NCBI GenBank assembly: GCA_031369745.1
Contig: JANMPG010000232.1
Span: 1-42,303, forward strand
DNA: 42,303 nt
Direction of reading: 5' to 3'
Source of the DNA: Actinomycetes bacterium
Lineage (GTDB): Bacteria; Actinomycetota; UBA4738; HRBIN12
The position numbers were made by a program, and so were the translations under genes. Positions 6,192 through 37,478 of the stretch are shown one piece after another; the first letter of the stretch is position 1, and each line of letters opens with the position of its first letter. Under the pieces are notes generated by a model. The model searched no databases and was not told where the DNA came from. It worked only from the letters and a program-made list of their open reading frames with translations.

Positions 6192-6292
6192 TACTCCGGC
6201 GGGTCGTTGCATCCGGGCGCCCTGCAAGGGAGGCTGTCGGCTCCTGCACCGTCGAGGACTGACCCGTTGGCGGTACGGTGGTGCTCTTCCTG

Positions 6293-7495
6293 ATGACGAG
6301 ATCGGACCGATCCTTCCCCGTCGGCCCTCGCGTAGTGGCCGTTGGCGTCGCGTTCGCGGCGCTGTTGTTGTCGGTGCCCTTCGCCGGCGCCGCGCCGAGT
6401 TCAAGCGACGTGCAAAACGCGCACGAGGCCTCCATCGCCGCTGAGCAACGGCTGAACCAGATCCAGGCCGAGATCAACACGATCCAGGTGCGTTTGTCCA
6501 GCGCGATCATGAAGGTCGATCAAGCCGAGGCCGACCTCGAGCAGGTGGTCGCACAGATCGACGCAACCAAGTCGCGGATCGCTCGAGCGCAAGCCCGCTA
6601 CGACGCGATCCGCGAGCAACTGAACGCCCGAGCCGCGCAGGCGTTCATGTCGGGTCCCGGTTCTGATCTGGAGATCGTGCTCGGCGCGTCATCGCTGGAC
6701 GATCTATCCGACCGGCTGGAGTTCGTCGACGCCGTCGCGCAGTCTGATGCAGACCTCGCCCAGGAGGTCGCCAACCTGCAGGCCGCATTGCAGGTCGAGG
6801 AACAGAACCTGCGGCAGCTGCGCACGAAACAGCGCGCGCAGGTGATCGCCGTGCGGGCGCAGCGCGATTCGATCCTGAACGACCTTGCGCGCGTGAGTCA
6901 GCTCCGCGACGCGGCCGCCAAGACGGTGACCGACACGCTGGAGAAGTACCAGCGGCTCCGCAAGGATCGGGCCGACTATCTCGCGAGCCTGGCGGCACAG
7001 ACGAGCACGTCGCCGCCCCACACGTCCGTGTCGATGCCGCCCGGCTTCAACAACCCGCTCGAGGTGTGCCCGGTCGATGACCCCCGGTTGTTCGGTGATG
7101 GATTCGGAGCGCCGCGCTACGCCGGCGGGTTCCACCTGCACGCCGGTAACGACATCTTGTCGAACTACGGCACGCCGATCCGGGCCCCCTTCGACGGGGT
7201 GGCGCAGCGTGCGTACAACACGCTGGGTGGATACTCCGAGTACGTCTACGGTGCATCGGGCTACGTCTACAACGCGCACCTGGACCACTACTCGGCGAAC
7301 TCCGACGGACCTGTGCAGGCAGGGGACATCATCGGCTACGTCGGTGACACCGGGGACGCGATCGGCACCCCGCACGACCACTTCGAGTGGCATCCGAACT
7401 CCGTGCCCGCCAACTGGCCCGCGAGCTACTACGGCTACAGCGTGGTCGGCTCGGCCGTCAATCCGTATCCCGTTCTCGTCGACGTGTGCGGTTGA
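6293..7495 (+). CDS. Secreted coiled-coil (PcsB/CwlO-like) M23 family peptidoglycan endopeptidase
   Basis: Signal peptide, long coiled coil, HAGND (HxxxD) and PHDHFE (HxH) zinc motifs, GDIIGYVGDTG. Confidence 0.9.
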   Translation: MTRSDRSFPVGPRVVAVGVAFAALLLSVPFAGAAPSSSDVQNAHEASIAAEQRLNQIQAEINTIQVRLSSAIMKVDQAEADLEQVVAQIDATKSRIARAQARYDAIREQLNARAAQAFMSGPGSDLEIVLGASSLDDLSDRLEFVDAVAQSDADLAQEVANLQAALQVEEQNLRQLRTKQRAQVIAVRAQRDSILNDLARVSQLRDAAAKTVTDTLEKYQRLRKDRADYLASLAAQTSTSPPHTSVSMPPGFNNPLEVCPVDDPRLFGDGFGAPRYAGGFHLHAGNDILSNYGTPIRAPFDGVAQRAYNTLGGYSEYVYGASGYVYNAHLDHYSANSDGPVQAGDIIGYVGDTGDAIGTPHDHFEWHPNSVPANWPASYYGYSVVGSAVNPYPVLVDVCG

Positions 7496-18703: not shown

Positions 18704-19074
18704 CGGGTGCTCCCGGTGGCAGGCTGCATGCGCGCGATCAGCTCGCGCGCAGCGACCACGTGGTAGGCCGGCAGCTCGAGCGCGCGAGCCACCGCGGCCA
18801 CACCCTGGGCGCGGAGATCCGCCGGTGACTTCGCGTCAACAAGCGGCGGCGCCTCGAGCACGAAGAACCCGACCAGCTCCAGGAACTGGGCCAACGACGG
18901 CGACATCGCGCCTCTCTCGTACTGGTAGATGGTTTGCCGCGAGGCCGGGCAGCCCTTCGTGTCGGCCGCCGACTCCACCGAACGGTAGCCGGCAGCGCGG
19001 CGAAGATCGCGCAACATCCCGCCGATCGATGCGCGGTCCTTCGGCGCGATCGGCGGTTTCTTGGTCCGAGCCAT
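18700..19074 (-). CDS. XRE-type helix-turn-helix protein
   Basis: IGGMLRDLRRAAG...SRQTIYQYERGAMSPSL; 4-nt overlap with the mce start. Confidence 0.75.
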   Translation of the reverse strand: MARTKKPPIAPKDRASIGGMLRDLRRAAGYRSVESAADTKGCPASRQTIYQYERGAMSPSLAQFLELVGFFVLEAPPLVDAKSPADLRAQGVAAVARALELPAYHVVAARELIARMQPATGSTR

Positions 19075-19281
19075 GAGATGCGGAGCCTACCGCAGGGCTC
19101 CATCACACCGGCAGATACAGGGAAACGCCCTGGGGCCCAAGCGATCACGGCCCCGTCGCTCGACCCCGGCCGTTCGCCCAGCGCGCACCCGTCGGATGGC
19201 GGATGCACGGGTGAGGGCGTCCGATGTAGCGTGGCCACTCCGAACCACCCGCAGCATCGGCCGAACGCTCGAGGAGTGCAC

Positions 19282-21105
19282 GTGCGCGACAAGCAACCAG
19301 CCAGTCACACCCTGTTGCTTGAGGGGTCACAGCTGGTGCGCCGGGGTCGCGCCGACGTCTTCCGTCAGCGCGAACACACCCGGATGAAGAAGATCATCAA
19401 GACGATCGTGATCGTCGGACTGATCGACGTCGGGCTCTACCGTTTGTGGGCATCCGGCTTCCATCTCGGGTTGCCGAAGTTCGGCCCGGAGGCGATCTTC
19501 TTCTTCCCGCCGATGGTGATGTTGATCGCGATCATCGGCATGCCCTTGGTCATGTTGCTGAACGGCCGCTCGCCGCACATCACGGTCTACCCCGAGCAGG
19601 TCGAGATCGGTCTCACCGACATCAAGGGGCTCGACCAACAGGTCGACGAGGTGATCCGCTCGATCGACGCGTTCCTCGGTTACGCGACGTTCAAAGAAGA
19701 ACTGGGCGGGACGCCCCGACGAGGCATCCTGTTCGAAGGTCCACCCGGAACCGGCAAGACGTTCCTCGCAAAGGCCATGGCCAAGCAGGCGGGCGTGCCG
19801 TTCCTGTTCATCCCGGCACCGGCGTTTCAGTCCATGTGGCAGGGCATGTCGGCGTTCCGGATCCGTTCGTTCTTCCGCAAGCTCCGGAAGGCGGCGCGCA
19901 AGGAAGGGGGCGCGATCGGCTTCATCGAGGAGATCGACGCGGTGGCGTCGGCCCGAGGGGGCGTGTCGGAGTCGGCGCCGGCGCCGACGAACCTGGCCCG
20001 CACCACGTCGGCGTTCCTCGGCGGCGGCGACTCGGGCAACATGGTCAACGAACTGCTGATCCAGATGCAGTCGTTCGATCAGCCGCCGCTCGGGCGTCGG
20101 ATCAAGGCCAAGATCAAGTCGTGGATCAACGGCTATCTGCCACCCAACTGGCAGATGACGCCGATGACCTCGCAGTACTCCAACGTCTTGCTAATCGCGG
20201 CGACGAACCGCGGCGACTCGCTCGATCCGGCCTTACTGCGGCCGGGGCGCTTCGATCGCCGCCTGTACTTCGACATGCCGACGCGCGCGGAGCGCCGTGA
20301 CCTGATCGACTTCTTCATGGAGCGCAAGGCCCACGAGCCGTCGCTTGACCGCGACGACGATCGCGAGCGCATCGCCGCGGAGACCTTCGCGTACACGCCG
20401 GTGATGATCGAGCATCTCTTCGATGAGGCCCTGTTGCTGTCGCTGCGCGATGGGCGCCGCGAGATGAGCCTGCACGACGTCATGGAGGCGAAGTTCAACG
20501 AAGAGGTCGGCTTGAAGCAAACGACCGCCTACACCGACTTCGACCGGGAGGCAGTCGCGACGCACGAGGCCGGGCACGCCACCCTCGCCTACATCGTGGG
20601 CAAGGGGCGCCGCCTCGAGGTGTTGTCGATCATCAAGCGACGCGGCTCGCTCGGCATGCTCGCCCACAGCGATGAGGAGGAGCGCCTGACGCGAACGAAG
20701 TCCGAGATCGAAAACGGCATCGCGATCGCGCTCGGCGGACTGGCCGCCGAGGAGATGTTCATGGGCGAGTCCGGCACGGGGCCCGGCGCGGACCTGGCGC
20801 ACGCCACGGGGCTCGCCGCGCAGATGGTCGGCTCGTTCGGCATGGCCGGCTCGCTGATCAGCTACGAGGCCGTGGCCGATGGCCCGCTGTCGCGTTCCAA
20901 CCTCGTCGGCAAGATCTTAGCCAACACCGAAACGAAGCAGAAGCTCGAGGACATCCTCGAGGCGCAGCGCGACCGCGTCGAGGCGGTGCTCGCCGAGAAC
21001 CGCGACGTGCACGCGGCATTGGTCGCGGCGCTGTTGGATCGAGACGAGCTCGTGCGCGAGGAGATCCTCGAGGTCATCGAAAAGGCCATCGCCAACCGAC
21101 CGTAG
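19282..21105 (+). CDS. FtsH-like membrane AAA+ ATPase/M41 zinc metalloprotease (atypical paralogue)
   Basis: GAGGAG RBS at 19271 before GTG 19282 (alternative ATG 19384). Hydrophobic N-terminal segments, GPPGTGKT, FIEEID, NRGDSLDPALLRPGRFDR, HEAGH and LGGLAAEE. Confidence 0.85.
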   Translation: MRDKQPASHTLLLEGSQLVRRGRADVFRQREHTRMKKIIKTIVIVGLIDVGLYRLWASGFHLGLPKFGPEAIFFFPPMVMLIAIIGMPLVMLLNGRSPHITVYPEQVEIGLTDIKGLDQQVDEVIRSIDAFLGYATFKEELGGTPRRGILFEGPPGTGKTFLAKAMAKQAGVPFLFIPAPAFQSMWQGMSAFRIRSFFRKLRKAARKEGGAIGFIEEIDAVASARGGVSESAPAPTNLARTTSAFLGGGDSGNMVNELLIQMQSFDQPPLGRRIKAKIKSWINGYLPPNWQMTPMTSQYSNVLLIAATNRGDSLDPALLRPGRFDRRLYFDMPTRAERRDLIDFFMERKAHEPSLDRDDDRERIAAETFAYTPVMIEHLFDEALLLSLRDGRREMSLHDVMEAKFNEEVGLKQTTAYTDFDREAVATHEAGHATLAYIVGKGRRLEVLSIIKRRGSLGMLAHSDEEERLTRTKSEIENGIAIALGGLAAEEMFMGESGTGPGADLAHATGLAAQMVGSFGMAGSLISYEAVADGPLSRSNLVGKILANTETKQKLEDILEAQRDRVEAVLAENRDVHAALVAALLDRDELVREEILEVIEKAIANRP

Positions 21106-21138: not shown

Positions 21139-21153
21139 TAGACTTCCCGCATG
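21139..21153 (+). promoter_or_regulatory. Leaderless -10 promoter/start TAGACTTCCCGCATG of the thiolase
   Basis: TAGACT + 6 nt + ATG with no Shine-Dalgarno; identical to the pccB element. Confidence 0.55.
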
Positions 21154-22332
21154 ACCGCCTCCTACCTCGTGGCTGGGGCTCGCACGCCCATCGGACGCTT
21201 CCAGGGCGGGCTCGCCGACCTGCAGGCGGTGCAGCTCGGCGCGATCGCCATCCGCGACGCGATGACGCGGGCCGGTGTCGTGGGCGAACAGGTCGACTAC
21301 ACGATCATGGGCCACGTCCTGCAGGCGGGTCAGGGCCAGGGGACCGCGCGGCAGGCGGCGATCGCCGCCGGCATCCCGATCGACGTGCCCGCGATCACGA
21401 TCAACAAGGTGTGTCCGTCGGGGATGGCCGCGATCGCCATGGCCGATCAGATGATCCGCGCCGGCGAGATCGAGGTCGCGGTCGCCGGCGGCATGGAGTC
21501 GATGACGAACGCGCCGTTCGTGGTGCCGAAGGCTCGCGGGGGCCAGCGGCTCGGCCACTCACCGATGCTCGATGTGATGGTTCACGACGGCTTGTGGAGT
21601 GCCTTCGACGATCAGCACATGGGGGCCGGCACCGACGAGATGAACCGCGAATTCGGCGTAGATCGAGTTGTGCAGGATGCCTGGGCGGCCCGGTCGCACG
21701 CACGCGCGGCACGGGCGTGGGATGAGGGCCGGTTCGCCGACGAGGTCGTCGCGGTCACGGTTCCGCAGCGCAGGGGCGACCCAACGGTGGTCGATCGGGA
21801 CGAAGGTATCCGTGCCGACACCACCGCCGGGAAGCTGGCCTCGCTGTCGCCCGCCTTTTCCCCTGACGGCACGGTGACGGCGGGCAACGCCTCGCAGATC
21901 AGCGATGGCGCCTGCGCCGTGGTCGTCGCGAGCGAGGAAGCGGTCGAGCGGCTTGGCCTGTCACCGATCGCGCGGATCGAGGCATACGGCATGTCGGCGG
22001 ACCGGTTCCCCTCGTTGCACACCGTGCCGGCGCTCGCGCTCAACAAGGCGTTGAAGAAGATGGGCATCGACGCCTCGCAGCTCGGTGTGATCGAGATCAA
22101 CGAGGCGTTCGCCGGTGTCGCCGTGCACGCGACCCGGATGTTGGGTGTGGATGAGGCGGTCGTGAACCCCAACGGCGGAGCGGTCGCGTTGGGTCACCCG
22201 ATCGGGGCCAGTGGCGCGCGGATCGTCCTGACCACCGCGCTGGAGATGCAGCGACGCGGCATCGACCTCGGCGCGGCTGCGATCTGCGGTGGTGGCGGCC
22301 TTGGGGACGCGTTGATCGTGCGCCGCGCCTGA
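21151..22332 (+). CDS. Acetyl-CoA C-acetyltransferase (thiolase)
   Basis: RTPIG, TINKVCPSG, GGMESM, TAGNASQISDGA, NEAFA, GHPIGASG and AICGGGG. Confidence 0.95.
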   Translation: MTASYLVAGARTPIGRFQGGLADLQAVQLGAIAIRDAMTRAGVVGEQVDYTIMGHVLQAGQGQGTARQAAIAAGIPIDVPAITINKVCPSGMAAIAMADQMIRAGEIEVAVAGGMESMTNAPFVVPKARGGQRLGHSPMLDVMVHDGLWSAFDDQHMGAGTDEMNREFGVDRVVQDAWAARSHARAARAWDEGRFADEVVAVTVPQRRGDPTVVDRDEGIRADTTAGKLASLSPAFSPDGTVTAGNASQISDGACAVVVASEEAVERLGLSPIARIEAYGMSADRFPSLHTVPALALNKALKKMGIDASQLGVIEINEAFAGVAVHATRMLGVDEAVVNPNGGAVALGHPIGASGARIVLTTALEMQRRGIDLGAAAICGGGGLGDALIVRRA

Positions 22333-22338
22333 GGCCGT

Positions 22339-25300
22339 CTAGGACTTCGCGTCGCTCGGCAGGTGGGCCACCCGCCGCAACTCCGCGGCGAGGGTTTGAT
22401 GCGCAGCCTCGGCTTCCCACACGTCCTCGGGTTCGGTGTCGAGCTCTTCGACGGTGATCTGTAGGGCCGGCGACTCGACCGGCGCACCGGTGCCTGCACC
22501 GTCGGGAAGGAACACCCGGAAGGCACAGCCGCCGCTTTCGGTCGCTTCCGCCTTGACCGATCCCCCCTGCACCTCGGCGAATCGGCGCACGACCGCTGAG
22601 ATCGCAGACTCCGATGGGCTGCCGGGGTCCTCGACAGAGAGCATCGCACCGCCGTCAACGTGCTGCAGACGCACGACGATCGTCTTGCCGTTCTGCGTGC
22701 GCTCCGCCGACATCCGCAGCAGGCCCGTGATGATCTGCTCCGTGCGCTGGGCGTCGATCTTGAGCTTCAACGGGTCGGCCACGATCCGGATGTCGTTGTC
22801 GCCATCAGCACCGGACTCCTCTACGACACGATTCACGAGCGCTTCCATGTCGGTGCGCTTGATGGTGAGCTCGACCGTGCCGTTGGCGAGGCGGTCTGCG
22901 TCGATCAGATCCGCGACCGTGTGGTCCAACCGGCGCGTGTGTGTCGCAAGCTGCTTCATGAGCTGGGCCTGATCCTTCGCATCCTTCTTGTGCTTGAGCA
23001 GCTTCGTGATGCCGTCGATCTTGGCCAGCGACTTCTTGGCGTCCATCGACAGTTCCTTCAGCAGTGGCGAGGATGCCCGTCGGTCGTCCAATGCCCCAGC
23101 ATCGATCGCGGCCGACGTCGCGGCCGAGATCTCACGCTGCGTGGCGGCATCCCGGGTGGCGGCGACGTCGTGCTCCCGCATCTCGCGCAGCGCCTCGGAC
23201 ATCTGGTGCGTGCGGATCTCGGCTTCGGCAAGGTCGGCGCGATCGGCCGCGGAGCTCAGGTCTGTCTCCAGGTCACGCACCCGATCCTCGGCGGAGATGA
23301 GTTTCTCCGTCTGGGCGGCGAGCCGCTCCTGGGTGACGCGCAGCAACTCGTCGATCTGTGAACGTCCCGGGTCGTCGGCCAGCTCGAGTTGCCGGCGAGC
23401 GTCGGAGTCCTGCAGGCGGCGATTCAGTTCCTGGTTGTCGGCCGCCGCGTCATCCAGCTGGCGGATCAGCTTGTCGAGGCGGTCTTGCAGCGCGTCGCGC
23501 TCGTGGGCGGCGATCGTCGCGGCCTGGTCGGCGCTCTCTGCACGCTGACGCTCCAGCTCGAGCTCGGCCCGCACATCTTCGACCGCGCCGTCGGTCCGCG
23601 AGATGTCGGCCTGGGCGCCGACCAGCGAGCGGCGGATGTCTTCGACCTCCTTGTGTGCCTGCGTCACGGCGGCCGAACGCTCCTTGATCTCGGCGCCGAG
23701 CGACTTGACCTGTTCGCGCGTGGCGAGAAGCTCGTCGTGCGCCTGGAGGAGGCGCTGCTCGCGGCTGGCGGCCTCGCCCCGTGCCGCCTCGACGTCCACG
23801 CGCGCGGCGTCGAGGTCGACCCGTACAGTCTCCAGTTCGGCGGCGGCCCGACGCGCGGTGGACTCCGCCTCGGTGATCCGCCCGGCGAGCTCGGCTTCGG
23901 TCTGCTTGACCTGCGCCTCATACGAGCTCTGCATGTCGGTGATCTGACGCTGGAACCCCTCGCGCGTCTCGCGCACCTTGTCTTCGAACTCGGACTCGCG
24001 CTCCACGAGGTCGGCGCGGAACGACGCCTCTTTGCTTGCAAGCTCGGCCTTTGTCGAGCGCAGTTCACCCTCCAACATCGCGGCGCGCTGTTCTTCGTTA
24101 CGCAGTGCGCGCAGCTCGATGCGTGCGTCGTCCAGCTCGCGGCGGGCGCGGTCCAACATCGTGCCCGCTGAGCTCAGGTCGTCCTTCGTGCGAAGCAGCT
24201 CGACGTGCGTTGCGTCGAGCTCGCCACGAAGCTCATCGTCGGATCCCTCCGGCGAGGTGCGCGGTGACAGCAGCGCCTCGGTCAGCTCTGCCCGGGATCG
24301 GTCCAGCTGCCGCAGGAGGTCCTCTTTCTCTCGCTCCAGCGAGGGAACGCGACTCGCGTCGGCGTCGACCGGCACGCGCAGCGCGTCTTGCAGCTGCTCG
24401 CCGAGCCGCGTCCGCTCGGTGCGAAGCGTGTCGAGTTGCTGCTCCAGCGTCTTGACCTGACCCTCGGCGCGCAGCGCGCGCTTCTCGATCGTCGGGTCGG
24501 GCGCGGTGGCGGTGTTCGGCTCGCGATCCAGCGCCCGCAGGCTTTGGAGTTCCTCCAGGGATTTGCGGTATTGGTCCTGCAGCAGCACGAGATGCTCCTC
24601 GGCCGCGGTCGCTCGATCTTCCGCTCGGCGACGGGCCTCGGCTTCTTCGCGCATACCCGGCTGCGAGGCGGCGGCGCGGACCGGCTGCTGGGCAACGGCA
24701 ACGGCGCGTGGCAGCTCGGCGGCACGCTCGGGGGAGTTGGCGACGACCGAGAGCAGTCGCGCGACCCCGAACACGGCCAGACCGAGCACGATCAGCATGG
24801 CGAACAGGAACACCGCGTTCGTGTTCCAAGGAGCTGCGGCCGTCGCGATCGGGGTATCGGGTCGCGTGAGCTGTACGACGGCGGGATCGCCCACGCCGGA
24901 GCGGAACACCAGCGGGAGCATGATCGAGATGTTGCCCTGGTAGTTGGTGATCTGCGGTGTGTCCTTCAGTGCCGCCTTGATCCGGTCGGACTCACCGGGC
25001 AGCTCGTTACCGATCCGCCCAACCTCCGTGGAGTACAGGATCGTGCCCTCGGGGGAGTACACCGTGATCTGGTCGAAATCGCTCGGGTCGACAACCACGC
25101 TTTGGATCTGCGTGGTCAGTTCCGCCGCGCGGACGGCGGCCACGGGCGCGGTCACGTCGCTTGGCTCGAACACGAGCGAGAGTGAGCTGTCGGCGATCGA
25201 GCGCGCCTGCGCCACGACCATGTCTTGTGCGTTGCGCTTGGCGCGCACGCCCATGAGCATCGATCCGACGATCCCGATGACGAGCAGTGCGCCCAGAACT

Positions 25301-25350
25301 CCCAGCAATGTCCGGGCGATGCGGCTGTACCCCTTCAACGAAGCGATCAT
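22339..25350 (-). CDS. Membrane-anchored long coiled-coil protein with degenerate histidine-kinase-like C-terminus
   Basis: TM, ~140-aa extracytoplasmic domain (ITVYSPEGTILYS, Cache-like), second TM, ~500-aa heptad-rich coiled coil, then HisKA-like and HATPase-like segments (DAQRTEQII, LSVEDPG, QGGSV, GGCAFRVFLP). Confidence 0.75.
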   Translation of the reverse strand: MIASLKGYSRIARTLLGVLGALLVIGIVGSMLMGVRAKRNAQDMVVAQARSIADSSLSLVFEPSDVTAPVAAVRAAELTTQIQSVVVDPSDFDQITVYSPEGTILYSTEVGRIGNELPGESDRIKAALKDTPQITNYQGNISIMLPLVFRSGVGDPAVVQLTRPDTPIATAAAPWNTNAVFLFAMLIVLGLAVFGVARLLSVVANSPERAAELPRAVAVAQQPVRAAASQPGMREEAEARRRAEDRATAAEEHLVLLQDQYRKSLEELQSLRALDREPNTATAPDPTIEKRALRAEGQVKTLEQQLDTLRTERTRLGEQLQDALRVPVDADASRVPSLEREKEDLLRQLDRSRAELTEALLSPRTSPEGSDDELRGELDATHVELLRTKDDLSSAGTMLDRARRELDDARIELRALRNEEQRAAMLEGELRSTKAELASKEASFRADLVERESEFEDKVRETREGFQRQITDMQSSYEAQVKQTEAELAGRITEAESTARRAAAELETVRVDLDAARVDVEAARGEAASREQRLLQAHDELLATREQVKSLGAEIKERSAAVTQAHKEVEDIRRSLVGAQADISRTDGAVEDVRAELELERQRAESADQAATIAAHERDALQDRLDKLIRQLDDAAADNQELNRRLQDSDARRQLELADDPGRSQIDELLRVTQERLAAQTEKLISAEDRVRDLETDLSSAADRADLAEAEIRTHQMSEALREMREHDVAATRDAATQREISAATSAAIDAGALDDRRASSPLLKELSMDAKKSLAKIDGITKLLKHKKDAKDQAQLMKQLATHTRRLDHTVADLIDADRLANGTVELTIKRTDMEALVNRVVEESGADGDNDIRIVADPLKLKIDAQRTEQIITGLLRMSAERTQNGKTIVVRLQHVDGGAMLSVEDPGSPSESAISAVVRRFAEVQGGSVKAEATESGGCAFRVFLPDGAGTGAPVESPALQITVEELDTEPEDVWEAEAAHQTLAAELRRVAHLPSDAKS

Positions 25351-25428
25351 CCTCGTGCCCCTCGCTCCACCCTGTCCGATCTCTCCCCGACCCCTCTCCG
25401 GTCAGTTTGAGCTGGTCTCCGTGAGTGG

Positions 25429-25456
25429 TTATCGGCAGGACGCCGCGAGAGCTTCA
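25429..25456 (-). promoter_or_regulatory. Sigma-28 (FliA/WhiG)-like promoter TGAAG-N15-GCCGATAA
   Basis: Minus strand reads TGAAG ctctcgcggcgtcct GCCGATAA, a perfect sigma-28 -10 with canonical spacing, ~80 nt upstream of ATG 25350. Confidence 0.6.
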
Positions 25457-25502
25457 GTGGTCGCAGGGCGTAGGGCGCTTGACCGACACGCGACACAAGG
25501 CG

Positions 25503-25517
25503 TCCCCCGGCGGGGGA
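25503..25517 (-). terminator. Short GC hairpin immediately after the sbcC stop
   Basis: TCCCCC-GGC-GGGGGA inverted repeat adjacent to the stop at 25518; no clear U-tract. Confidence 0.3.
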
Positions 25518-28046
25518 TCACGCAGGCGCAGCGCCGGACACCACGCGCGAGGTGCCCGCCGCTTCGTCCTTGTCGAGCACGATCAGGTCCTCTAGGAGTT
25601 CGTGCATCTGCGCAACGTGCGACACGAGGATCACCAGTCGCTCGCCGTCGCCGCGGACCAGATGTTCGATCCCGCGCATCGCCCGTTCGATGTGCTCGGG
25701 GTCCAGGCTGCCGAACCCCTCGTCCAGGAAGAAGGAGTCGAGGCGGCCCCCGCCGCGCGTCACCATATCGGCCAACGCGAGCGCCAGCGCGAGCGATGCG
25801 AGGAACGTCTCTCCTCCCGACAGCGAGTCCGGGTCCCGAAGGGCGCCACCGGCGTTGACGTCGGCGATCCGGAAGGAGTCGTCCTCGCTGAACCGGTAGT
25901 CGCCGTCGGTGAGCTCCTCGAAGTGGATGCTTGCGAGTTCCGCCAGCGCCGCACGCTCCTCCGCCAGCAGCCACGCGAGGAACCGCGAGGGCTGTAGATC
26001 GTCGCGGAGACGGCGCGCGATCGCGTGCCGCTCCCGGGAGGCGTTCGCCCGATCGTCCAAGTCGGTGCCCGCCTCGACGGTCGCGCTGAGGATCGCGACA
26101 CGCTCGTGTGCCTGTGCGGCATGTACCTGTGCCTCGGTGGAGGCGGCGGCAACGTCTGCGTCCGCAGGCAGCCCGATCGACGCAAGCAGGTCGGCGCGAC
26201 GCGCCCCGGCGGCGGCGACCGCCTCGGCGACCTCTGTTCGTATGCGCTTCGCCTCGACCGTGCGATCGTCGATCAGTCGCGTCACCCGCCGGTAAGCATC
26301 GCGGATGCCCTTCGGCGACTCGTCGGTGTCCTCGACAGGGTGCTCCTCGAGCGCGCCCCACGATCCGGCCAGTTGCTCGCGGATGCGCGCGAGGGCGTTG
26401 GCCGTCGCGGTTGCTCGTTGACGGATCGTGTCGAGGGCGTCGCGTGCGGTCCGGGCGTCGTCGGCCGCGGCGCGAGCTGCGGTCTCGGCACGCTCGTGCT
26501 CACGTTGGCGTTCGTCGAGCAACGCGTTGGGGTCGCCCTCGCCGAGACGCTCCACGAGCGAGTTCTGTGTTGCAGCCAGGGATGCTTCGGCATCGCGCAT
26601 GACCGCGGCGGCGTCCGCCGCTTCGGCCGCGGCCCGATCCCGGTCGGTGAGAGCCGCGGCCGCGCCGGCGGCGGTGCGAGCCGCGGCTGCGGCGGCCCCA
26701 TCGCGGCTCTTCATCGCTTGCGCATACTGCGTATGGGCGCTGGCTCGAGCTCGCTCTGCCTGCCGGATGCCCGCGCTCTCTGATCTCTTCGGCCGGGTGG
26801 CAACGATCTGGGCACATACGGGGCAGGGGTCTCCCGGAACGAGGCTGCCTCGAAGCTCGGACGCCATCTCGTGGTGGCGCGCTAGGTGCAGGGCCTCGTC
26901 CGCGGCCGATAGCGCGTCGGTCGCAGCGGCCAACGTCGTCTCGGCTGCGGCGAGCTCGGTGGACGCCGCAACGTCCTTTGCTTGCGCGGCCGGGAGCTCG
27001 CCGTCCGCGGCGCTTGCGGCGCCAGCGGCCTCCTCACTTGCTGCGGTGGCCGCTTGCACCGCCGCCGCCTGCGCGTGCAGCTGGGCGACGAGTTCGGCGA
27101 ACACGCGCAGGTCGCCCATGCGTTCAGCAAGCGCGTCGCGAGCGGCCTCAGCTTCCCGTCGGATCGCCTCGGCCGCCTCGGCAGCCGAAGAGGCGTCCAC
27201 AACCGCGCCTGCGGCATGAACCGCGGTGTCGACCGCATCATCGAGTGTCTGCGCGTCGGGTAGGTTCGCAGCCGCACGTGTGAGTCGCTCGACCTGTTGG
27301 GTCGCCGCAACGCCGCGATCCGCCGCTGCGAGAGCCTCGCGGTCGAGATCCTCCACGGCAGGCCGAACACCTTCGATGTGATCGCGCCGCGTCCCAGCGA
27401 CCTCGTGCTCGGCGCGCGCATCGTCGAGAGCCGCTCGCGCCTCGCTGAGGCGCGCTCCCTCTTGATCGAGTGCGGCGAGGGTGGCTTCCTCACGGGCGAC
27501 CCGTTCCTTGGAGGCCACCAGCGCTGCGTCGAAGCGCTCGTAGCCGAACACACCCTTCAACACCGCGTTTCGCGGGGCGTCGGTGGCCAGCAGGAACTCC
27601 GCGAAGCGGTTCTGCGCGAGCAGGACGGATCGGCCGAACGTGTCGAAGTCCATGCCGAGCAACGACTCGATGCGTTCGCGCACCGGCTTGTCCATCACGA
27701 CGGTCTCGTCCACGGCAGCACCCGGCGCGTCGCCGGCGAGGCGCTCCAGCTTGGCTTGGCCCGCACCCTTGCGCTTCAGCGCCCTCGTGACACGCCACGT
27801 GTGCCCGTCCACCTCGAACACCAACTGGACGTGCGCGGTATCGGATAGCTGATTGATCAGACTCTTGGTGTCGCGCTGCACCCGCGGGGTCTTGCCGAAC
27901 AGCGCGAAGGCGACGCCGTCCAGGATCGAGGACTTGCCGGCGCCGATCGGACCGACGATGCCGATCAGGCGGCGTCCGCGAAGATCGAACGTCACCTCCT
28001 CCCGCCAGGAGCGGAAGCCGCGCAGGGTGAGCTCACGCGGGCGCAT
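25518..28046 (-). CDS. sbcC: SbcC/Rad50-like SMC ATPase
   Basis: LRGFRSW, Walker A GPIGAGKSS, Q-loop LAQNRF, central CPVC zinc hook within coiled coils, LSGGE signature, FFLDEGFG and VSH. Confidence 0.95.
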   Translation of the reverse strand: MRPRELTLRGFRSWREEVTFDLRGRRLIGIVGPIGAGKSSILDGVAFALFGKTPRVQRDTKSLINQLSDTAHVQLVFEVDGHTWRVTRALKRKGAGQAKLERLAGDAPGAAVDETVVMDKPVRERIESLLGMDFDTFGRSVLLAQNRFAEFLLATDAPRNAVLKGVFGYERFDAALVASKERVAREEATLAALDQEGARLSEARAALDDARAEHEVAGTRRDHIEGVRPAVEDLDREALAAADRGVAATQQVERLTRAAANLPDAQTLDDAVDTAVHAAGAVVDASSAAEAAEAIRREAEAARDALAERMGDLRVFAELVAQLHAQAAAVQAATAASEEAAGAASAADGELPAAQAKDVAASTELAAAETTLAAATDALSAADEALHLARHHEMASELRGSLVPGDPCPVCAQIVATRPKRSESAGIRQAERARASAHTQYAQAMKSRDGAAAAAARTAAGAAAALTDRDRAAAEAADAAAVMRDAEASLAATQNSLVERLGEGDPNALLDERQREHERAETAARAAADDARTARDALDTIRQRATATANALARIREQLAGSWGALEEHPVEDTDESPKGIRDAYRRVTRLIDDRTVEAKRIRTEVAEAVAAAGARRADLLASIGLPADADVAAASTEAQVHAAQAHERVAILSATVEAGTDLDDRANASRERHAIARRLRDDLQPSRFLAWLLAEERAALAELASIHFEELTDGDYRFSEDDSFRIADVNAGGALRDPDSLSGGETFLASLALALALADMVTRGGGRLDSFFLDEGFGSLDPEHIERAMRGIEHLVRGDGERLVILVSHVAQMHELLEDLIVLDKDEAAGTSRVVSGAAPA

Positions 28047-29193
28047 CGGCGGCCTCCTCGAGGATCTCGCGAAGCGCGGTGAGCAAGGCTTCCGGGGGCT
28101 CTTGCCCGCCGGAGGTCGCCCGGTAGAACTCCGAATACAGTTCGTCGTCGCCGGGGCGATCGGTGAGCTCGCGGCGGGTCCTTCGTTCGGTGGGCGGGCG
28201 CTCAGCCCGCACGCGAACGAGGAAGGGGAAGGTCTCGGCCGCGCGCCGACCGAGATCGGGATCCGATCCGCCGACCTCCACGGTCACGTCGACGTAGCTC
28301 TCGGCGAGCTCGGCCGCACGCGCGGCGAGCGCGTCCCACGTGCCGTGTGCGCGCACGAGCGGGCGGCCCGCGGTGATCGGCACCGACGTGATCGTGGCGA
28401 GCCGACCCGGCTCGACGTCGATGAGCACCACGCGCTTACGCTCGCCCGCCTCGCCGAAATCCAACGGCAGCAGCGACCCCGCGTACTCCGCGGGTACGGC
28501 GGCGCCCGGCACCGGCTGCGGCGCGTGGATGTGCCCGAGCGCCACGTACTGGGGTCCCGCAGGGATCGCGTGTGCGGTCGCGCTGTACGCCTCACCGATG
28601 TGCAGCTCGCGTTCGCTGTGCGAGACGCGCACCCCGGTGACCATGAAGTGCGCGACCAACAGCGGCACCAGGTCGGCGCCGGCGCGCTCGATCAGCGCGG
28701 TGTTGTAGGCCGCAGTGATCTGGGCGACCCGCTCCGCGTATTGCCCGTACCACTTCCCAGCGTCGCGCATGAAGTCCACGACGCGGCCTTCGCGCAGGAA
28801 CGGGAACCCCGCGACCACGGCCGCGACCCCGAGCTCGTCGGGGCCGAGGATCGCGCCGGCGTCGGGCGCGCGGATCGCCCCGATCGCGTGCACGCCTCGC
28901 TGCCGCAACAGCGGCGCCAGCGCGTCGAAGAGCTCGGGAGAGTCGTGGTTGCCGGCCACGACGACGACCGGTCTTCCTTCCGCCAGTCGAAGCAGCGCGC
29001 CGAGCCCGATCGACAACGCCTCGACCGGTGGCGACGCGCGGTCGAAGACGTCGCCGGACACCAACACGAGATCGACGGACCGAGCATCGGCTATCGCAAC
29101 GACTTCATCGAGCGCTTGACGGGTTTCCTCGGTGCGATCGTGACGGCCGAGACGCCGGCCGACATGCCAGTCGGATGTGTGGAGGATGCGCAT
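28033..29193 (-). CDS. sbcD: SbcD/Mre11-like metallophosphoesterase nuclease
   Basis: MRILHTSDWHVG, SGDVFD, AGNHDS, YVALGHIH and YAGSLLPLDFGE; start at ATG 29193. Confidence 0.95.
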   Translation of the reverse strand: MRILHTSDWHVGRRLGRHDRTEETRQALDEVVAIADARSVDLVLVSGDVFDRASPPVEALSIGLGALLRLAEGRPVVVVAGNHDSPELFDALAPLLRQRGVHAIGAIRAPDAGAILGPDELGVAAVVAGFPFLREGRVVDFMRDAGKWYGQYAERVAQITAAYNTALIERAGADLVPLLVAHFMVTGVRVSHSERELHIGEAYSATAHAIPAGPQYVALGHIHAPQPVPGAAVPAEYAGSLLPLDFGEAGERKRVVLIDVEPGRLATITSVPITAGRPLVRAHGTWDALAARAAELAESYVDVTVEVGGSDPDLGRRAAETFPFLVRVRAERPPTERRTRRELTDRPGDDELYSEFYRATSGGQEPPEALLTALREILEEAADAPA

Positions 29194-29204
29194 GGGCGGC
29201 GGCG

Positions 29205-30938
29205 CTACAGCCCGGCGAACGGATCGCCGTCGGCGCCGTCGGCCACCTCCTCTTTGCGGGTCGCCCACGGCGGGAAGGGGAACGTGACGACGAGTGGGAC
29301 GGGCACGGCCGGCTGGCTCACCACCATGGTGCCGGGCTTCAGCAGTCGCGCTCGGGCGCGCGTCGAGGGGAGCATCCAGCCATACTCGGCGCGTTCGGCC
29401 TCGGCGGCGTCCAGACGCCCGCTGACGCGGATCGACGCGTTCTCCAAGACCTCCGATGCCACGCGGCTGGCCGTTTGCTGGGCGCCGACCAGCAGCACCC
29501 CCAGCGAGCGTCCGCGCTGTGCGATGTCGATCAGCATGTCCTTGAGGGGGCTGGTGCCCTCGCGCGGCGCGTACTTGTTCATCTCGTCCAGCACGATGAC
29601 CGACAGCGGCAGGCGCTGCCCCGTCGCCTCCTTGTGCTGGAACGTCTCCTTCAGCAGCGCGCCGACGACGAAGCGCTGCGCCTGCTCGTGCAGCGACTGG
29701 ATCGCCACCACCGTCACGTTGGCCGCGCCACGGTCGATGCGCCGGCTCTCCCCGGCGCGGATCAGGTGCCCCAGACGTCCCGAAGCCGCGTGCATCCTGC
29801 GCAGGAACGCAGACACCGTGCTGAGCTGAACGCGCCCGGTCCAGGCCTGGTCGGGTTCGCCGTCATCCGGATCCAAGACCTCTTCGAGCGCGTCGACCAG
29901 CGTGGCCAGATCGGTGATGATGCGACCCGCCTGCCCGGCCGGGATCGGCGCGGTCCAGCGCCCGTTCGGCTGATCGCGGGGATCGCGCAACGCAACGGCG
30001 CCGGGCATGCCCTCGACGTCGGCGGCGAAGCGTTGCAGCTGTTGCTGCACCCGCTCGCGGATGAACGGCAGTTGGTTCTTCGCGTCGCTCGCATCGGTGA
30101 AACAGAACTCCAGCAGACCCAGATCGATGAATTCTCGCGGTGTCCAGGCGAACACGTCGATCCCCTCCAAGCGTCCGCCGGTGTCGGGGATCCAATCGCC
30201 AACACCGCGGCGTGGCGGCGCCCAGAAGCGCACACTCGGAAACGGCGTCGGATCGACACCGATCGTGGCCCACCCCTGGGCCGCTCCCTCCGTCTGGTCG
30301 AACAGGCGATTGGGCTTGTCGAGCCACAGCAGGTCTTCGCCTTTCACGTTGAAGACCAGCACCCGAAGGTTCGCCGCGCCTTCGCCCACGATCTGCGGCG
30401 AAGCGGTCAGCACCCGCAGGAAGAACAGCGCGAACGACGTCTTGGTGGCGACGCCGGAGATGCCGGCGATCGACATGTGCCCGCCCTTGCGTCCGTCGAA
30501 GAAGTCCAGATCGACGTGCACGGGCAGGCCGTCGCGCCCCAGCCCGATCGGCAGCGGCCGTTGCATCTGGTCGGCGTACAGGGCGCGCCGTCGCTCCTCG
30601 CCGGTCGCCCGGTCGACCGTCTCGCCGGGGTCGGCGGACACCCACACCTCCGGATCGACGCGCGTCACCGCGACCCGGGCGGTGCGCACCTTCTGTGCGG
30701 GCATGATGCCGAGTTCGGCGATGCGGTGGGTATCGGACTCGTACTGCGCCCCCTCGTAGATCGCTTCGGCTTCCGTGACGACGCCATAGGTTCGGACCTC
30801 ACCGGCGGTGGGGACCTGGGTGCGCACGACCACGAGGTCGTCCAGCTGCAGGAACTGCTCGTCATCGACGACCACGCGGAATTCCGCCGTCTTCGTGTGC
30901 TCGGACCCCAGCACACGCCCGACCCGGCTGTGACTCAC
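29205..30938 (-). CDS. herA: HerA helicase/translocase ATPase
   Basis: N-terminal HAS-barrel-like region (VGRVLG...LQLDDLVVV), H-x-x-I-x-GISGVATKT Walker A, FNVKGEDL, IVLDEMNKYAP Walker B, RGRSLGVLLVGAQQ. Confidence 0.92.
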   Translation of the reverse strand: MSHSRVGRVLGSEHTKTAEFRVVVDDEQFLQLDDLVVVRTQVPTAGEVRTYGVVTEAEAIYEGAQYESDTHRIAELGIMPAQKVRTARVAVTRVDPEVWVSADPGETVDRATGEERRRALYADQMQRPLPIGLGRDGLPVHVDLDFFDGRKGGHMSIAGISGVATKTSFALFFLRVLTASPQIVGEGAANLRVLVFNVKGEDLLWLDKPNRLFDQTEGAAQGWATIGVDPTPFPSVRFWAPPRRGVGDWIPDTGGRLEGIDVFAWTPREFIDLGLLEFCFTDASDAKNQLPFIRERVQQQLQRFAADVEGMPGAVALRDPRDQPNGRWTAPIPAGQAGRIITDLATLVDALEEVLDPDDGEPDQAWTGRVQLSTVSAFLRRMHAASGRLGHLIRAGESRRIDRGAANVTVVAIQSLHEQAQRFVVGALLKETFQHKEATGQRLPLSVIVLDEMNKYAPREGTSPLKDMLIDIAQRGRSLGVLLVGAQQTASRVASEVLENASIRVSGRLDAAEAERAEYGWMLPSTRARARLLKPGTMVVSQPAVPVPLVVTFPFPPWATRKEEVADGADGDPFAGL

Positions 30939-31870
30939 GACGCGACCCGCTCGCTGACGGCGGCGCGCAGCGCTCGATACACGAGACCGGGCTCGCCCAT
31001 GCGATGACGCAGCTGTCGCTCCAGGGCGCCGATCGGCACGAGGTTCTGCGGCGCGCGCGGATCGATATGCGGCTGCGAGCCGAGCAGGGGCAGCAGCGCC
31101 GCCGTGCGGTCGGCGATCGTCACGACTTCGGCGATGGGCAGGTGCCCGGAGGTTTCACACCGCACGATGCCGGTCCACGAGTGCCCACCCGCAAGCACCG
31201 CGAGACGCACGTACCAGGAGTATCGACGGTAGTCGGCGATCGTGAACAGCGGTGTGCGCTGTCCGGGACCCAGCGAGCCGACGATCGCGCTGCGTTGCGG
31301 CGTGAGGTAGGTCACTCGGTGACTCTTGATCGTCCCCACGACCTGCTGTGGCGCGAGTTCGTTCAGCGGTCCGTCGGCGAACACGAAGGCGTCAGTGGCG
31401 ACGACGGCCGCGAGCCGGCCCTCGGCCGCTCGCATCCGCGATTGCAGGGCATGCACCAACGCGTCGCCGTCGCGGTCGGGGATCGTGATCGTTTCGTACG
31501 GCGGCACCAGGTCGACCCGCGGGAAGATCTCGGCACGACCGCCGGCAAGCACGGCCCACCGCTCGATGTGCTCGTCGGCAACGACCGATCGCGCGGTGGC
31601 GCGGTCCCAGCGAACCGAACCCACCGCGAACGTGCCGCACAATCCCGGCACCGGCCCTTCGACCGGGTCATCGATCGTCAGGCGCGCGTCGACGCGGCGA
31701 ACGCCGTCGATGAACGCGATGTGCCGCACGCCGTCGTCGATCCCGTCACGAGCCACCCAGGGGATCTCCTCGACGGTGTCGTCGACCGATCCTTGCGCCG
31801 GCGCGAGCGCATCGGCGTCGAGCGGGACGCCGTATTCCGGCGACCAGCCCTCGACGAAGATGCGCGCCAT
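30935..31870 (-). CDS. nurA: NurA-family nuclease
   Basis: AFIDGVRR, FADGPL, GTIKSH, SWYVRL and DPRAPQNLVPIGALERQLRHRMG; overlaps the herA start. Leaderless TAGTAT 7 nt upstream of ATG 31870. Confidence 0.85.
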   Translation of the reverse strand: MARIFVEGWSPEYGVPLDADALAPAQGSVDDTVEEIPWVARDGIDDGVRHIAFIDGVRRVDARLTIDDPVEGPVPGLCGTFAVGSVRWDRATARSVVADEHIERWAVLAGGRAEIFPRVDLVPPYETITIPDRDGDALVHALQSRMRAAEGRLAAVVATDAFVFADGPLNELAPQQVVGTIKSHRVTYLTPQRSAIVGSLGPGQRTPLFTIADYRRYSWYVRLAVLAGGHSWTGIVRCETSGHLPIAEVVTIADRTAALLPLLGSQPHIDPRAPQNLVPIGALERQLRHRMGEPGLVYRALRAAVSERVAS

Positions 31871-31910
31871 GCGCCGGATACTAGCTGCGCCTGCCGACGC
31901 TTCGGTGTGG

Positions 31911-32612
31911 TCAGGTCGGCGTGGTCTGCGTGCTGGCGGTCCGCCACGAGCCGTCGACATAGGCGAGGAACGTCGTTCGAAGGCTGCTCGGACAGCAGTG
32001 CGGGTCACCGGGGGCGAAGACGGCTTCGGTCAGGACCAGGCCCGCGGGATCGGTCGCGGGCTCGATCCGCCGGTCGCAGCCTCGGGAGCGGTACACCTGC
32101 CCCCCGGCCGACAGGTCGACCACGGCGACGATGCCGCAGCCTCCGGAGCCGCCCATCTCGGCGAGCACGAGCGCGTCGGGCGAACCGTCGCCCGTGACAT
32201 CGGCCAGCGTCGTGGAGATACCGAGTACCGGGTCGCGAGCGCCGGGGAACGCCGCGCCCCAGACGGGACGCCACGGTGCTCCACCGTCGTCGAAGCGTCG
32301 CCACGCGGCGATGCCTCGGTCCTGACGGAAGGGATCGTCCCCGGGGACCTCCCAGGACACGACGATCGCCTCGCCGACCGCGGTCTGCGTGATCCACGAA
32401 TCCGAGACCGTGGCCCCGATCGGGATCAGTGCCGCCGCGGGCACCCCGCCGGAACCCACGTCATCGTCGAACCAAGGCGGCAGGTCGGCCGGCAGGGGAG
32501 GCGCAGGGGAAACAGCGACGCTCGCCGTCGGCGAGGATATGTTGGAGTTGTCGCGAGACAGGCATCCTGATGTCGCGAGGATCAACACCATCGCCGCGGC
32601 TCGTGTGCGCAC
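31911..32612 (-). CDS. Putative lipoprotein (LppP/LprE-like GDPxCCPS motif)
   Basis: GTG 32612 follows TAGCAT by 7 nt; lipobox-like ATSGC, Pro/Ser linker, DVTGDG motif, C-terminal PGDPHCCPS. Confidence 0.6.
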   Translation of the reverse strand: MRTRAAAMVLILATSGCLSRDNSNISSPTASVAVSPAPPLPADLPPWFDDDVGSGGVPAAALIPIGATVSDSWITQTAVGEAIVVSWEVPGDDPFRQDRGIAAWRRFDDGGAPWRPVWGAAFPGARDPVLGISTTLADVTGDGSPDALVLAEMGGSGGCGIVAVVDLSAGGQVYRSRGCDRRIEPATDPAGLVLTEAVFAPGDPHCCPSSLRTTFLAYVDGSWRTASTQTTPT

Positions 32613-36806: not shown

Positions 36807-37478
36807 TTAGCCCACGGAACCGGGAGTGGTGGTGTGGCGGGCCAGGTAGGCTGCGGCCTCGGCTCGCCGGGCCACCTCGAGCTTGGACAGGATGCTCGAG
36901 ACGTAGTTCTTGACGGTCTTTTCCGCCAGTCGAAGCTCGTCGCCGATCTGCCTGTTGGTCCAGCCCTCGGCGATCAGCTCCAATATGCGTTCTTCCTGCG
37001 GGGACAATCGGGCGAGCTTCTCGTCCTTCATCAGGTGCTTGCCCTTGCGGAGTCGATCGAGCACCGCGTTCGTGACGCTCGGGTCCAGCAGCGAATCGCC
37101 CGCCCCCACCGCCCGGATCGCGCGGAGCAGATCGCCGGACTTGACCTGCTTCAGCACGTAACCCGATGCGCCGGCCATGATCGAGGCGAACAGCGCCTCG
37201 TCGTCGGCGAACGACGTGAGCATCAGCACCTTCGTCTCGGCGCGGTTCGCGCGGATCTCGCGGGTGGCCTCGATCCCACTGCCATCCGATAGCCGAACGT
37301 CCATCACGATCACGTCGGGGCGAGTGCGCGCGGCCTCGTCGATCGCCTCGCGAACCGAGCCGGCCTCGGTGGTGACGATGATGTCGTCTTGGGCATCCAG
37401 CATCGCGCGGATGCCGTTGCGGACGATCTCGTGGTCATCGACGAGCATGACGCGCAGGGGTGGGGACTTGGGGCTCAC
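36807..37478 (-). CDS. NarL-family response regulator, DevR/DosR-like
   Basis: LVDDHEIVR, MDVRL, LTSF, GASGYVLK and LAEKTVKNYVSSILSKL (DevR-type recognition helix). Confidence 0.92.
   Translation of the reverse strand: MSPKSPPLRVMLVDDHEIVRNGIRAMLDAQDDIIVTTEAGSVREAIDEAARTRPDVIVMDVRLSDGSGIEATREIRANRAETKVLMLTSFADDEALFASIMAGASGYVLKQVKSGDLLRAIRAVGAGDSLLDPSVTNAVLDRLRKGKHLMKDEKLARLSPQEERILELIAEGWTNRQIGDELRLAEKTVKNYVSSILSKLEVARRAEAAAYLARHTTTPGSVG

Follow-up and report, generated by a model that had tools for sequence, protein, structure and literature searches.

What becomes of a membrane histidine kinase once the residues that carry out its chemistry have gone? The question is raised by a gene on contig JANMPG010000232.1 of assembly GCA_031369745.1, from an Actinomycetes bacterium (GTDB lineage Actinomycetota; UBA4738; HRBIN12). 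The 42,303 nucleotides analysed are hereafter called the window. The gene occupies 22339..25350 on the reverse strand, as do all features of the protein described below, and its product, P0001, has 1003 amino acids plus stop. An earlier note, made from the sequence alone, had described this product as a membrane pseudo-histidine kinase, and that description was confirmed by the open frame, the topology, the folds and the lost motifs. From the N-terminus, P0001 consists of a first transmembrane helix (TM1), an extracytoplasmic single-Cache domain, a second transmembrane helix (TM2), a Pro-rich linker, a helix-rich stalk of about 510 residues, and the DHp (dimerization and histidine phosphotransfer) and CA (catalytic and ATP-binding) folds of a kinase. 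With its outside Cache sensor, heptad-quantised stalk and lid-less head it differs in architecture from the pseudo-histidine kinases studied so far. On balance, P0001 is rather likely to be a conserved, non-catalytic descendant of a HisKA-type kinase that acts as a docking scaffold.

The coding sequence is an open frame with a GC3 of 0.84, and its third codon positions are G+C-rich as in the surrounding real genes (window G+C is 66-72%). The start is taken to be correct because the N-terminus, MIASLK.Y.RIAR, is conserved among homologues. All or part of the stretch is contained in 13 public DNA sequencing runs from four studies; the runs listed include no RNA runs.

A kinase fold without the kinase motifs

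The structure of residues 735-960 was predicted using AlphaFold2 from a 35-row alignment (A3; pLDDT 84, pTM 0.77). The model has a hairpin of two helices (762-787 and 791-816) and, after it, an alpha/beta domain, the combination of DHp hairpin and GHKL fold seen in homologues of HisKA-type kinases. A Foldseek search with this model returned 347 PDB chains at E<=1e-3, with HK853 at the top (3.5e-12), DivL (4q20) at rank 8 (E 5.5e-12), and RetS (6dk7, 7n0e), CusS, WalK and KinB also present. The pseudo-DHp hairpin, delimited by the model helices and the Foldseek matches to HK853, DivL and RetS, spans residues 762-835 (22846..23067) and amounts to half of a four-helix bundle. It is followed by a GHKL-like pseudo-CA domain at residues 836-955 (22486..22845), defined by the model, Foldseek and a sub-threshold HATPase_c match, and by a C-terminal tail at residues 956-1003 (22342..22485) in which L987, E990, L991 and R993 are conserved.

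The catalytic motifs are missing from this fold. In a phmmer alignment against the PDB, the ISHELRTPL motif of HK853 aligns with LSMDAKKSL, which places Met769 (codon 23044..23046), at the phospho-His position, opposite His260 of HK853. The Asp following this position is retained, and the residue at H+4, Thr or Asn in the HisKA phosphatase motif as defined in PMC12963549, is Lys in P0001. The N-box equivalent lacks Asn, whether read as IITGLLRMSA (873-882), as IITGLLRMSAERT or as LLRMSAERT. The G1 box is represented by the remnant VEDPGS at 906-911, in which Asp908 is the sole G1 residue kept. Positions 2-109 of the HATPase_c profile are matched by just 85 residues (866-950), so about 23 profile positions are missing, those of the F box, lid and G2 between G1 and the G2 helix. 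The HATPase_c score is 18.7 bits, under the Pfam gathering cut-off of 26.4, and no Pfam match to HisKA (PF00512) was obtained at E<=1. NCBIfam matches to PhoR (E 1.1e-10), CreC and WalK over residues 750-927 are far below threshold. The earlier note had claimed a C-terminal HisKA/HATPase-like fold with Met in place of the phospho-His, no N-box Asn, a reduced G1 and a deleted lid and G2; the model, the HK853 alignment and the profile coverage bear out each of these, and its coordinates are right. P0001 thus shares the fold of HisKA-type kinases and lacks the phospho-His, the N-box Asn, the DxGxG of G1, the F box, the GxGxG of G2 and Pfam scores above threshold. Because the canonical His, the Mg-binding Asn, the G1 and G2 glycines and the ATP lid are absent, P0001 probably cannot autophosphorylate, and it is unlikely to bind ATP-Mg as kinases normally do.

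One feature of the head is specific to the family. The tip of the DHp hairpin is almost invariant and rich in Lys and His, reading LKHKKDAKD. Its His787 (22990..22992), the last residue of helix alpha1 in the model and located at the loop, is His in 159 of 171 family rows; homologues P0131 and P0135 carry Phe or Tyr. True histidine kinase relatives shown read LER at this site, and an 'other' group is mixed (R 11, H 11, 18 gaps).

Relatives and the age of the histidine loss

A word-indexed search recovered 336 proteins at E<=1e-3. The 120 matches listed are 50-81% identical to P0001, most over 99-100% of its length, and all come from metagenomes or metagenome-assembled genomes (MAGs). An exhaustive search of representatives gave 5161 matches, 75 of them at E<=1e-30. 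When a hidden Markov model of the C-terminal domain was applied to 269 proteins, the family (above about 190 bits) was separated from ordinary kinases carrying SHELRTPL, LL.NA.RHTP and VED.GPG (185 bits or less). The scores grade into those of real kinases. The 187 rows with more than 150 bits show a hypervariable H column (L 64, V 35, M 27, H 18, T 8, N 8, I 6, A 6 and others, with one Tyr) between the fixed flanks EL(S).DAKKSL. Of the 18 rows with His, twelve belong to ordinary kinases, and the remaining six are family members that read ELSHDAKKSL without the N-box Asn and the lid.

A FastTree phylogeny was built from the 117 C-terminal domains that remained of 185 after thinning at 85% identity. 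The H column was removed beforehand, and the tree was rooted on 13 ordinary histidine kinases reading SHELRTPL and LL.NA.RHTP. The His-less clade holds 104 of the 117 rows (support 98), 98 of them without His. It divides into a group of 15 intermediates in which the N-box Asn and DxGP persist (support 97) and a lid-less group of 89 (support 99). His occurs in six isolated tips scattered within the lid-less clade and is not conserved even between sister rows. The minimum on this tree is six changes, one loss and five re-gains. On this tree the histidine was lost once, and early, after which the site drifted and occasionally reached His again. The earlier note had proposed checking whether the loss of His, Asn and G2 is conserved among homologues: the loss of His is ancient and shared by nearly the whole clade, and the lid is missing from 89 of its rows.

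Conservation of the head points to purifying selection. In a 15-sequence alignment (A2), mean pairwise identity is 62% for the DHp, 57% for the CA, and 62%, 62% and 56% for stalk segments 233-277, 431-472 and 662-745; it is 51% for the Cache domain, 41% for both 473-660 and the tail, and 26% for the Pro-rich linker. Conservation of the DHp at this level fits a retained binding role.

Intermediate forms of the protein survive in related genomes. In genera g17 and g31 of the same GTDB family, matches are weak and the slot beside the thiolase and FtsH-like genes holds two genes. This split form was seen in three genomes of two sister genera. Both genes are intact at loci L045 (5508-8136, reverse strand) and L046 (4621-7366, reverse strand); at L044 (6080-9172, forward strand) the frame of the second gene breaks once more after about 100 codons. 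The L044 junction matches the others, and in this single-contig assembly an assembly error and a real break are indistinguishable. Gene A encodes the TM-Cache-TM-coil portion (429-560 amino acids as called) and gene B a coil with the His-less DHp/CA (410-445 amino acids). The junction between them reads GGTGAGGTGA, and the GTG start of gene B either overlaps the stop of gene A or follows it by 7 nt, in another frame, an arrangement typical of translational coupling. The H-box of gene B is AVAADVRRPL or AIAGEVRRPL, with His replaced by Ala or Gly, and stretches equivalent to N, G1 and G2 are kept (LLSNAGRRT, VDDTGPE and GATGL). The relative P0212 scores 63 bits on HATPase_c. Judging by these motifs, the split-form clade lost the His but kept the ATP site. 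An extra gene between the thiolase and gene B in split-form genomes resembles, by eye on the translation, an acyl-CoA dehydrogenase.

Genome G160, which carries one of these pairs, also encodes a fused lid-less paralogue of 1399 amino acids beside sbcDC (L046, 13321-17517, reverse strand). Its stalk contains a 231-bp unit (77 amino acids, 11 heptads) repeated 2.9 times at 97% identity, which looks like a recent heptad-preserving expansion. The split form indicates that the two halves can exist as separate polypeptides, and the G160 repeat that stalk length changes in heptad multiples.

Membrane anchor, sensor domain and stalk

TM1 (residues 15-33; 25252..25308) has a Kyte-Doolittle mean of 2.51 over 19 residues, and TM2 (residues 179-197; 24760..24816) a mean of 2.8. 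Between them lies a single-Cache (PDC) extracytoplasmic sensor domain at residues 36-178 (24817..25245). In an AlphaFold2 model of residues 1-215, based on a 34-row alignment (A4; pLDDT 86.8), TM1 extends as a long helix (3-60) into an alpha/beta PDC/Cache core, and a helix at 173-204 recrosses the membrane. Foldseek matched this model to the extracytoplasmic sensor domains of TlpQ, KinD, WalK, CitA and DctB in the PDB (E 4e-5 to 1e-3). The long helix continuous with TM1 and the PAS-like alpha/beta core between two transmembrane helices are the arrangement of a single-Cache domain. No Pfam Cache-family match above threshold was found for P0001, and homologue P0123 has a sub-threshold match to sCache_3_2 (20.8 bits against a cut-off of 28.4). 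Hydropathy, model and structural matches thus agree with the Cache-like domain between two transmembrane helices that had been read from the sequence.

TM2 is followed by a variable Pro/Ala-rich linker, recognised by its composition, at residues 206-232 (24655..24735). The linker contains four Pro and has the lowest identity of the protein. The stretch from 233 to 745 shows heptad a/d enrichment and a composition rich in A, E, R, L and D; it is interrupted by proline-containing breaks at 278-286, 327-336, 363-367 and 661. By composition and conservation, the proximal stalk (233-367; 24250..24654) comprises three helices with Pro loops between them and carries a conserved juxtamembrane motif, EARRRAE.RA.AAEE. 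The Pro-free rod (368-660, 293 amino acids; 23371..24249) is defined by its heptad a/d enrichment, with a register shift at about 431-472, a conserved segment, and a constant register over 473-640. At the textbook coiled-coil rise of 0.148 nm per residue it would measure about 43 nm if extended. The distal stalk (662-745; 23116..23367) contains the near-invariant LRVTQERLA.QTEKL, in which T673, Q674, E675, R676, L677 and A678 are invariant across the 15 sequences of A2. A variable junction at residues 746-761 (23068..23115; pLDDT 55-61), ending EDRR...P, precedes the DHp; it is non-helical at 752-761 in the AlphaFold2 model and ends at Pro762, which like R757 is invariant in A2. A weak SMC match in NCBIfam (TIGR02168, residues 421-652, E 3.7e-5) is far under the 567-bit cut-off. 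The '~500-residue rod' of the earlier note therefore stands as a helix-rich heptad stalk of about that length, but the stalk is segmented and just 368-660 is free of Pro.

Insertions and deletions were compared in two hand-picked alignments, A2 (15 of about 270 proteins) and A1 (37 proteins). Among the closer relatives in A2, indels in the Pro-free rod are of 7 or 14 residues and unpaired; one 7-residue deletion, at 510, recurs in 10 of the 14 comparisons, and there are single 14-residue insertions at 402, 510 and 539. Rod gaps are more irregular in the more distant rows of A1. The loop at 363 accepts insertions of 10-55 amino acids, and indels of arbitrary length occur at 209-225, 320-325 and 724-746 (4-20 residues at the last of these). 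Net stalk length is not conserved modulo 7 and varies widely, the family proteins ranging from 754 to 1285 amino acids. The lack of pairing among these heptad-sized indels fits a parallel, in-register coiled coil better than a folded-back hairpin, and an antiparallel stalk of the chemoreceptor or SMC kind was rejected on this pattern. Because the TM2-stalk linker and the stalk-DHp junction vary in length, and the latter was modelled with low confidence, the head appears to be flexibly tethered. A separation of tens of nanometres from the membrane, as first proposed, holds as a maximum but not as a fixed distance.

Distribution and genomic context

The distribution of the family was surveyed with residues 1-745 as the query, which avoids generic kinase matches. 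An evenly drawn sample of 401 genomes from the phylum yielded 20 that matched at E<=1e-15, all of them in one uncultured Actinomycetota class; none of the 369 sampled genomes outside this class matched at that threshold. Within the order, which comprises the same 294 genomes as the class, 165 matched at E<=1e-10, including 162 of the 222 in the window's own family and 2 of the 71 in the other seven families. All 27 loci in GTDB species genomes come from genomes titled uncultured Actinomycetota or 'Actinomycetes' MAGs. These tallies include unpublished genomes (G018, G029, G037, G165, G173, G174, G193, G194 and G221), none of which is the sole basis of a claim.

Upstream of P0001 on the same strand are sbcC (25518-28046), across a gap of 167 bp, and sbcD (28033-29268). 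On the other side a thiolase gene (21151-22332) is convergent with the P0001 gene, the two stops lying 6 bp apart. Beyond it are a gene for an FtsH-like AAA+/M41 protease and then a small helix-turn-helix-like (HTH-like) gene. Of the 37 loci examined, 30 have sbcC upstream in the same orientation, 35 have the thiolase and 33 have the FtsH-like protease. These neighbours are all conserved together and are more similar across loci than the pseudo-kinase is, a pattern that we read as general synteny and not as a functional link. A scan of 22200-25700 found no promoter-like sites and one terminator-like site, which is located inside the coding sequence and is no more than was found in shuffles. 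In the genome there are 38 receiver domains, of which 5 are in open frames of 130-159 amino acids. The nearest real kinases in the genome are 30-32% identical to P0001, share the DHp-CA part alone and have an intact SH[DE]LR[TS]PL.

Several other genes of the window were characterized in passing. The longest open reading frame of the FtsH-like protease begins at 18934 (18934-21105, forward strand) and similarity begins at about 19417, so the start is uncertain. Upstream of sbcD, two reverse-strand open reading frames at 29205-30938 and 30935-32008 (577 and 357 amino acids) have gene-like codon bias and no Pfam match at E<=1e-5. Because the first of them and sbcD overlap at the annotated sbcD start, one of the two starts is probably wrong. 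The forward-strand gene at 2799-6191 encodes 1130 amino acids with zinc ribbons, an adenylate/guanylate cyclase domain, an AAA_16 (STAND-type) ATPase and MalT-like TPR repeats. Another, at 6278-7495 (forward strand), encodes an M23 peptidase with a sub-threshold PcsB-type coiled-coil match before the catalytic domain (26.0 bits, cut-off 27).

The architecture of P0001 has no name in Pfam, NCBIfam or the Atlas. The Protein Atlas gave just Actinomycetota 'hypothetical protein' clusters together with generic histidine kinase and Cache clusters. No description of a Cache, coiled-coil and lid-less histidine kinase architecture was found in a full-text collection that leaves out most subscription journals. 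These negatives agree with the original impression that the protein belongs to no recognised named family. Homologues are called 'SbcCD ATPase subunit', 'chromosome segregation ATPase', 'phage infection protein YhgE' and 'signal transduction histidine kinase' in public sources. The SbcCD, chromosome-segregation and YhgE names reflect coiled-coil composition only: proteins of the SMC/SbcC/Rad50 type carry the Walker A and B halves of an ABC ATPase head at the two ends of an antiparallel coiled coil, and P0001 has no ATPase-head domain in Pfam, just weak matches to coiled-coil regions. The families PF24161 (CCDC39) and PF23649 (FKBP15), precomputed on some homologues, are eukaryotic coiled-coil families and were set aside as spurious.

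A proposed docking scaffold and its competitors

If P0001 acts as a docking scaffold, selection would have kept the face of the DHp that ordinary kinases use to dock receivers, namely DAKKSL..I.GIT.LLKHKKDAKDQAQL in the lower half of the hairpin. Its mechanism would then be binding and not chemistry: the head may recruit a receiver-domain protein or another kinase to the membrane, or sequester or position it there, in a mode comparable to that of DivL with DivK~P, RetS with GacS, or PsmA with DivIVA. The protein would be a parallel homodimer, to judge from its heptads, its DHp fold and the absence of pairing among heptad-sized indels. A two-copy complex prediction for residues 600-960 (A2), run without controls, gave a score of 0.07 and a mark of 0.42, which speaks neither for nor against a dimer. 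Helix-borne transmembrane signalling is unlikely because the TM2-stalk and stalk-DHp junctions are variable and non-helical, and the Cache domain may more likely govern where, or whether, the protein clusters. As for the non-catalytic scaffold holding a kinase-like domain proposed in the earlier note, the lost motifs, the ancient loss and the conserved head all support it, and a docking role is plausible, but the distance of the head from the membrane is not fixed. The polar landmark and the allosteric partner of the note are candidate roles.

The closest precedents share parts of this design. Canonical sCache-TM-HisKA-HATPase_c kinases (WalK, PhoR, CitA and HK853) have the same domain order, topology and folds as P0001. 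In contrast to them, P0001 lacks the His, the Asn, G1, G2 and the lid, has no HAMP domain or continuous signalling helix, and carries instead about 510 residues of segmented stalk whose junctions are flexible, with no adjacent cognate response regulator gene. RetS of Pseudomonas aeruginosa has a periplasmic carbohydrate-binding-type sensor and two receiver domains. It lacks a long coiled coil, unlike P0001. It is a kinase-like protein that works by binding the DHp of another kinase, as the title of entry 7n0e has it, and not through a phosphorelay of its own; 7n0e and 6dk7 are both among the Foldseek matches. DivL of Caulobacter crescentus is, like P0001, a membrane-anchored, histidine kinase-like protein with a conserved DHp docking face. 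In DivL the phospho-His is replaced by a conserved Tyr, and a response regulator-docking patch around Tyr550 binds DivK~P, as given in PMC4211667. According to the same paper, DivL keeps the N, G1, F and G2 boxes, whereas P0001 has lost all of them and its H position is hypervariable. DivL is alphaproteobacterial and has cytoplasmic PAS domains, no Cache domain and no long coiled coil, and P0001 shows the reverse set. P0001 thus has neither the Tyr, nor the intact boxes, nor the multiple PAS domains of the DivL family, no PAS match being found in Pfam.

PsmA of Streptomyces venezuelae is described in PMC12963549 as having degenerate ATP motifs and no autokinase activity and as binding DivIVA. 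Its orthologues, reported there from Streptomycetaceae only, have a variable H position followed by conserved residues, with the H-box XSLRGP. P0001 resembles it in being an actinobacterial, HisKA-derived pseudokinase with a variable H position, conserved following residues and degenerate ATP motifs. By that description, however, PsmA is cytoplasmic, with a PAS-PAS, histidine kinase-like, long disordered region and REC order, whereas P0001 is a two-TM Cache protein with a stalk, comes from another class, has no PAS or REC match in Pfam and carries the H-box xDAKKSL, which set it apart from the PsmA family. By analogy, P0001 would work most like DivL and PsmA but belong to neither.

Several observations weigh against a docking scaffold. 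The absence of catalysis is inferred from sequence and fold, and dimerisation from a sequence pattern and an analogy of fold. The tree is a FastTree reconstruction with SH-like (Shimodaira-Hasegawa-like) supports and draws many rows from genomes that are related to one another. In G1, the Asp that contacts adenine (Asp908) hardly varies, which makes binding of some nucleotide or other ligand conceivable. Conservation of the Cache domain (51%) implies an input, and the model offers a vague output. No receiver-domain gene is adjacent to that of P0001; the nearest encodes a LuxR-type response regulator (36807-37478) with its own HisKA_3 kinase nearby. No partner candidate was singled out among the 38 receiver domains and closest kinases of the genome. 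Phosphotransfer in trans is conceivable, given His787 and the canonical-site His of six members.

Among other explanations, we regard as unlikely a structural or cytoskeletal envelope protein whose stalk does the work, for example in division, shape or polarity as with other long coiled-coil proteins of actinobacteria, and whose head is just a dimerisation cap or a site for a partner outside two-component systems, such as DivIVA in the case of PsmA. The stalk is more than half of the protein, its motifs at 233-277, 431-472 and 662-745 are conserved to the degree given above, and weak matches to SMC, tropomyosin and other coiled-coil proteins were found. PsmA, moreover, is an actinobacterial pseudo-histidine kinase acting on the polarisome without a phosphorelay. 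However, the receiver-docking face of the DHp is as conserved as the best stalk motifs, the stalk varies widely in length, and P0001 lacks the PAS domains, intrinsically disordered region and REC of PsmA, whose orthologues are confined to Streptomycetaceae according to PMC12963549.

It is doubtful that the membrane-rooted stalk presents the dead head up to about 40-70 nm into the cytoplasm as a spatial organiser, either a tether or ruler between the envelope and a cytoplasmic structure or a landmark that sets the place of a signalling partner, with His787 as a possible relocated acceptor in a new kind of relay. If this were so, the real kinases, the two-gene form without His but with an intact ATP site, and the fused form without a lid would be successive stages in the conversion of a sensor kinase into a structural organiser.

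Continued service as a phosphotransfer component, in which phosphate would be received in trans on His787 or the canonical His for an HPt-like relay or a phosphate sink, is improbable. The prevalence of His787, with LER in its place in the true kinase relatives shown, the ELSHDAKKSL members and the retained Asp after the H position would favour it. Yet His787 is located at the end of alpha1, at the loop, about 18 residues below the canonical site, is flanked by Lys and lacks an H-box; P0131 and P0135 do without it. The tips with a canonical His are scattered and differ from their sister rows, and Lys occupies H+4 in place of Thr or Asn.

A tie to the upstream SbcCD nuclease, as a membrane tether or regulator of DNA-end processing whose Lys/His tip (K-H-K-K-D-A-K-D) contacts DNA or SbcC, is very improbable. 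The sbcD-sbcC-P0001 order on one strand and its recurrence at most loci suggest such a tie, but the thiolase, FtsH-like and HTH genes are equally conserved, which looks like general synteny. Loci L018, L019 and L025 lack sbcDC directly upstream, and the split pair of G160 is divergent from sbcDC. The names from JGI, 'SbcCD ATPase subunit' and 'chromosome segregation ATPase', mirror coiled-coil similarity only, and PF24161 and PF23649 are eukaryotic families. Finally, a recently decayed kinase, a pseudogene in the making, is scarcely credible: its catalytic motifs are gone and its Pfam scores are sub-threshold, but the reading frame is unbroken here and in most relatives, the relatives listed match at full length, the loss is common to the 104-row clade, and recent decay is ruled out for practical purposes because the dead head, with DHp and CA better conserved than most of the protein, is among its most constrained segments.

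Significance of the family

To our knowledge, pseudo-histidine kinases are known from few studied cases, DivL, RetS and PsmA among them, each of which wires or positions signalling or polarity machinery. The P0001 family is kept in the majority of genomes of one uncultured family of actinobacteria. None of the names 'signal transduction histidine kinase', 'SbcCD ATPase subunit' or 'chromosome segregation ATPase' is fit for its members, and annotations that carry them should be read with caution. The interest of the family is mainly in its unusual stalk and in its preserved evolutionary intermediates, which form a natural series for the stepwise repurposing of a kinase and for the question of which surfaces must stay.

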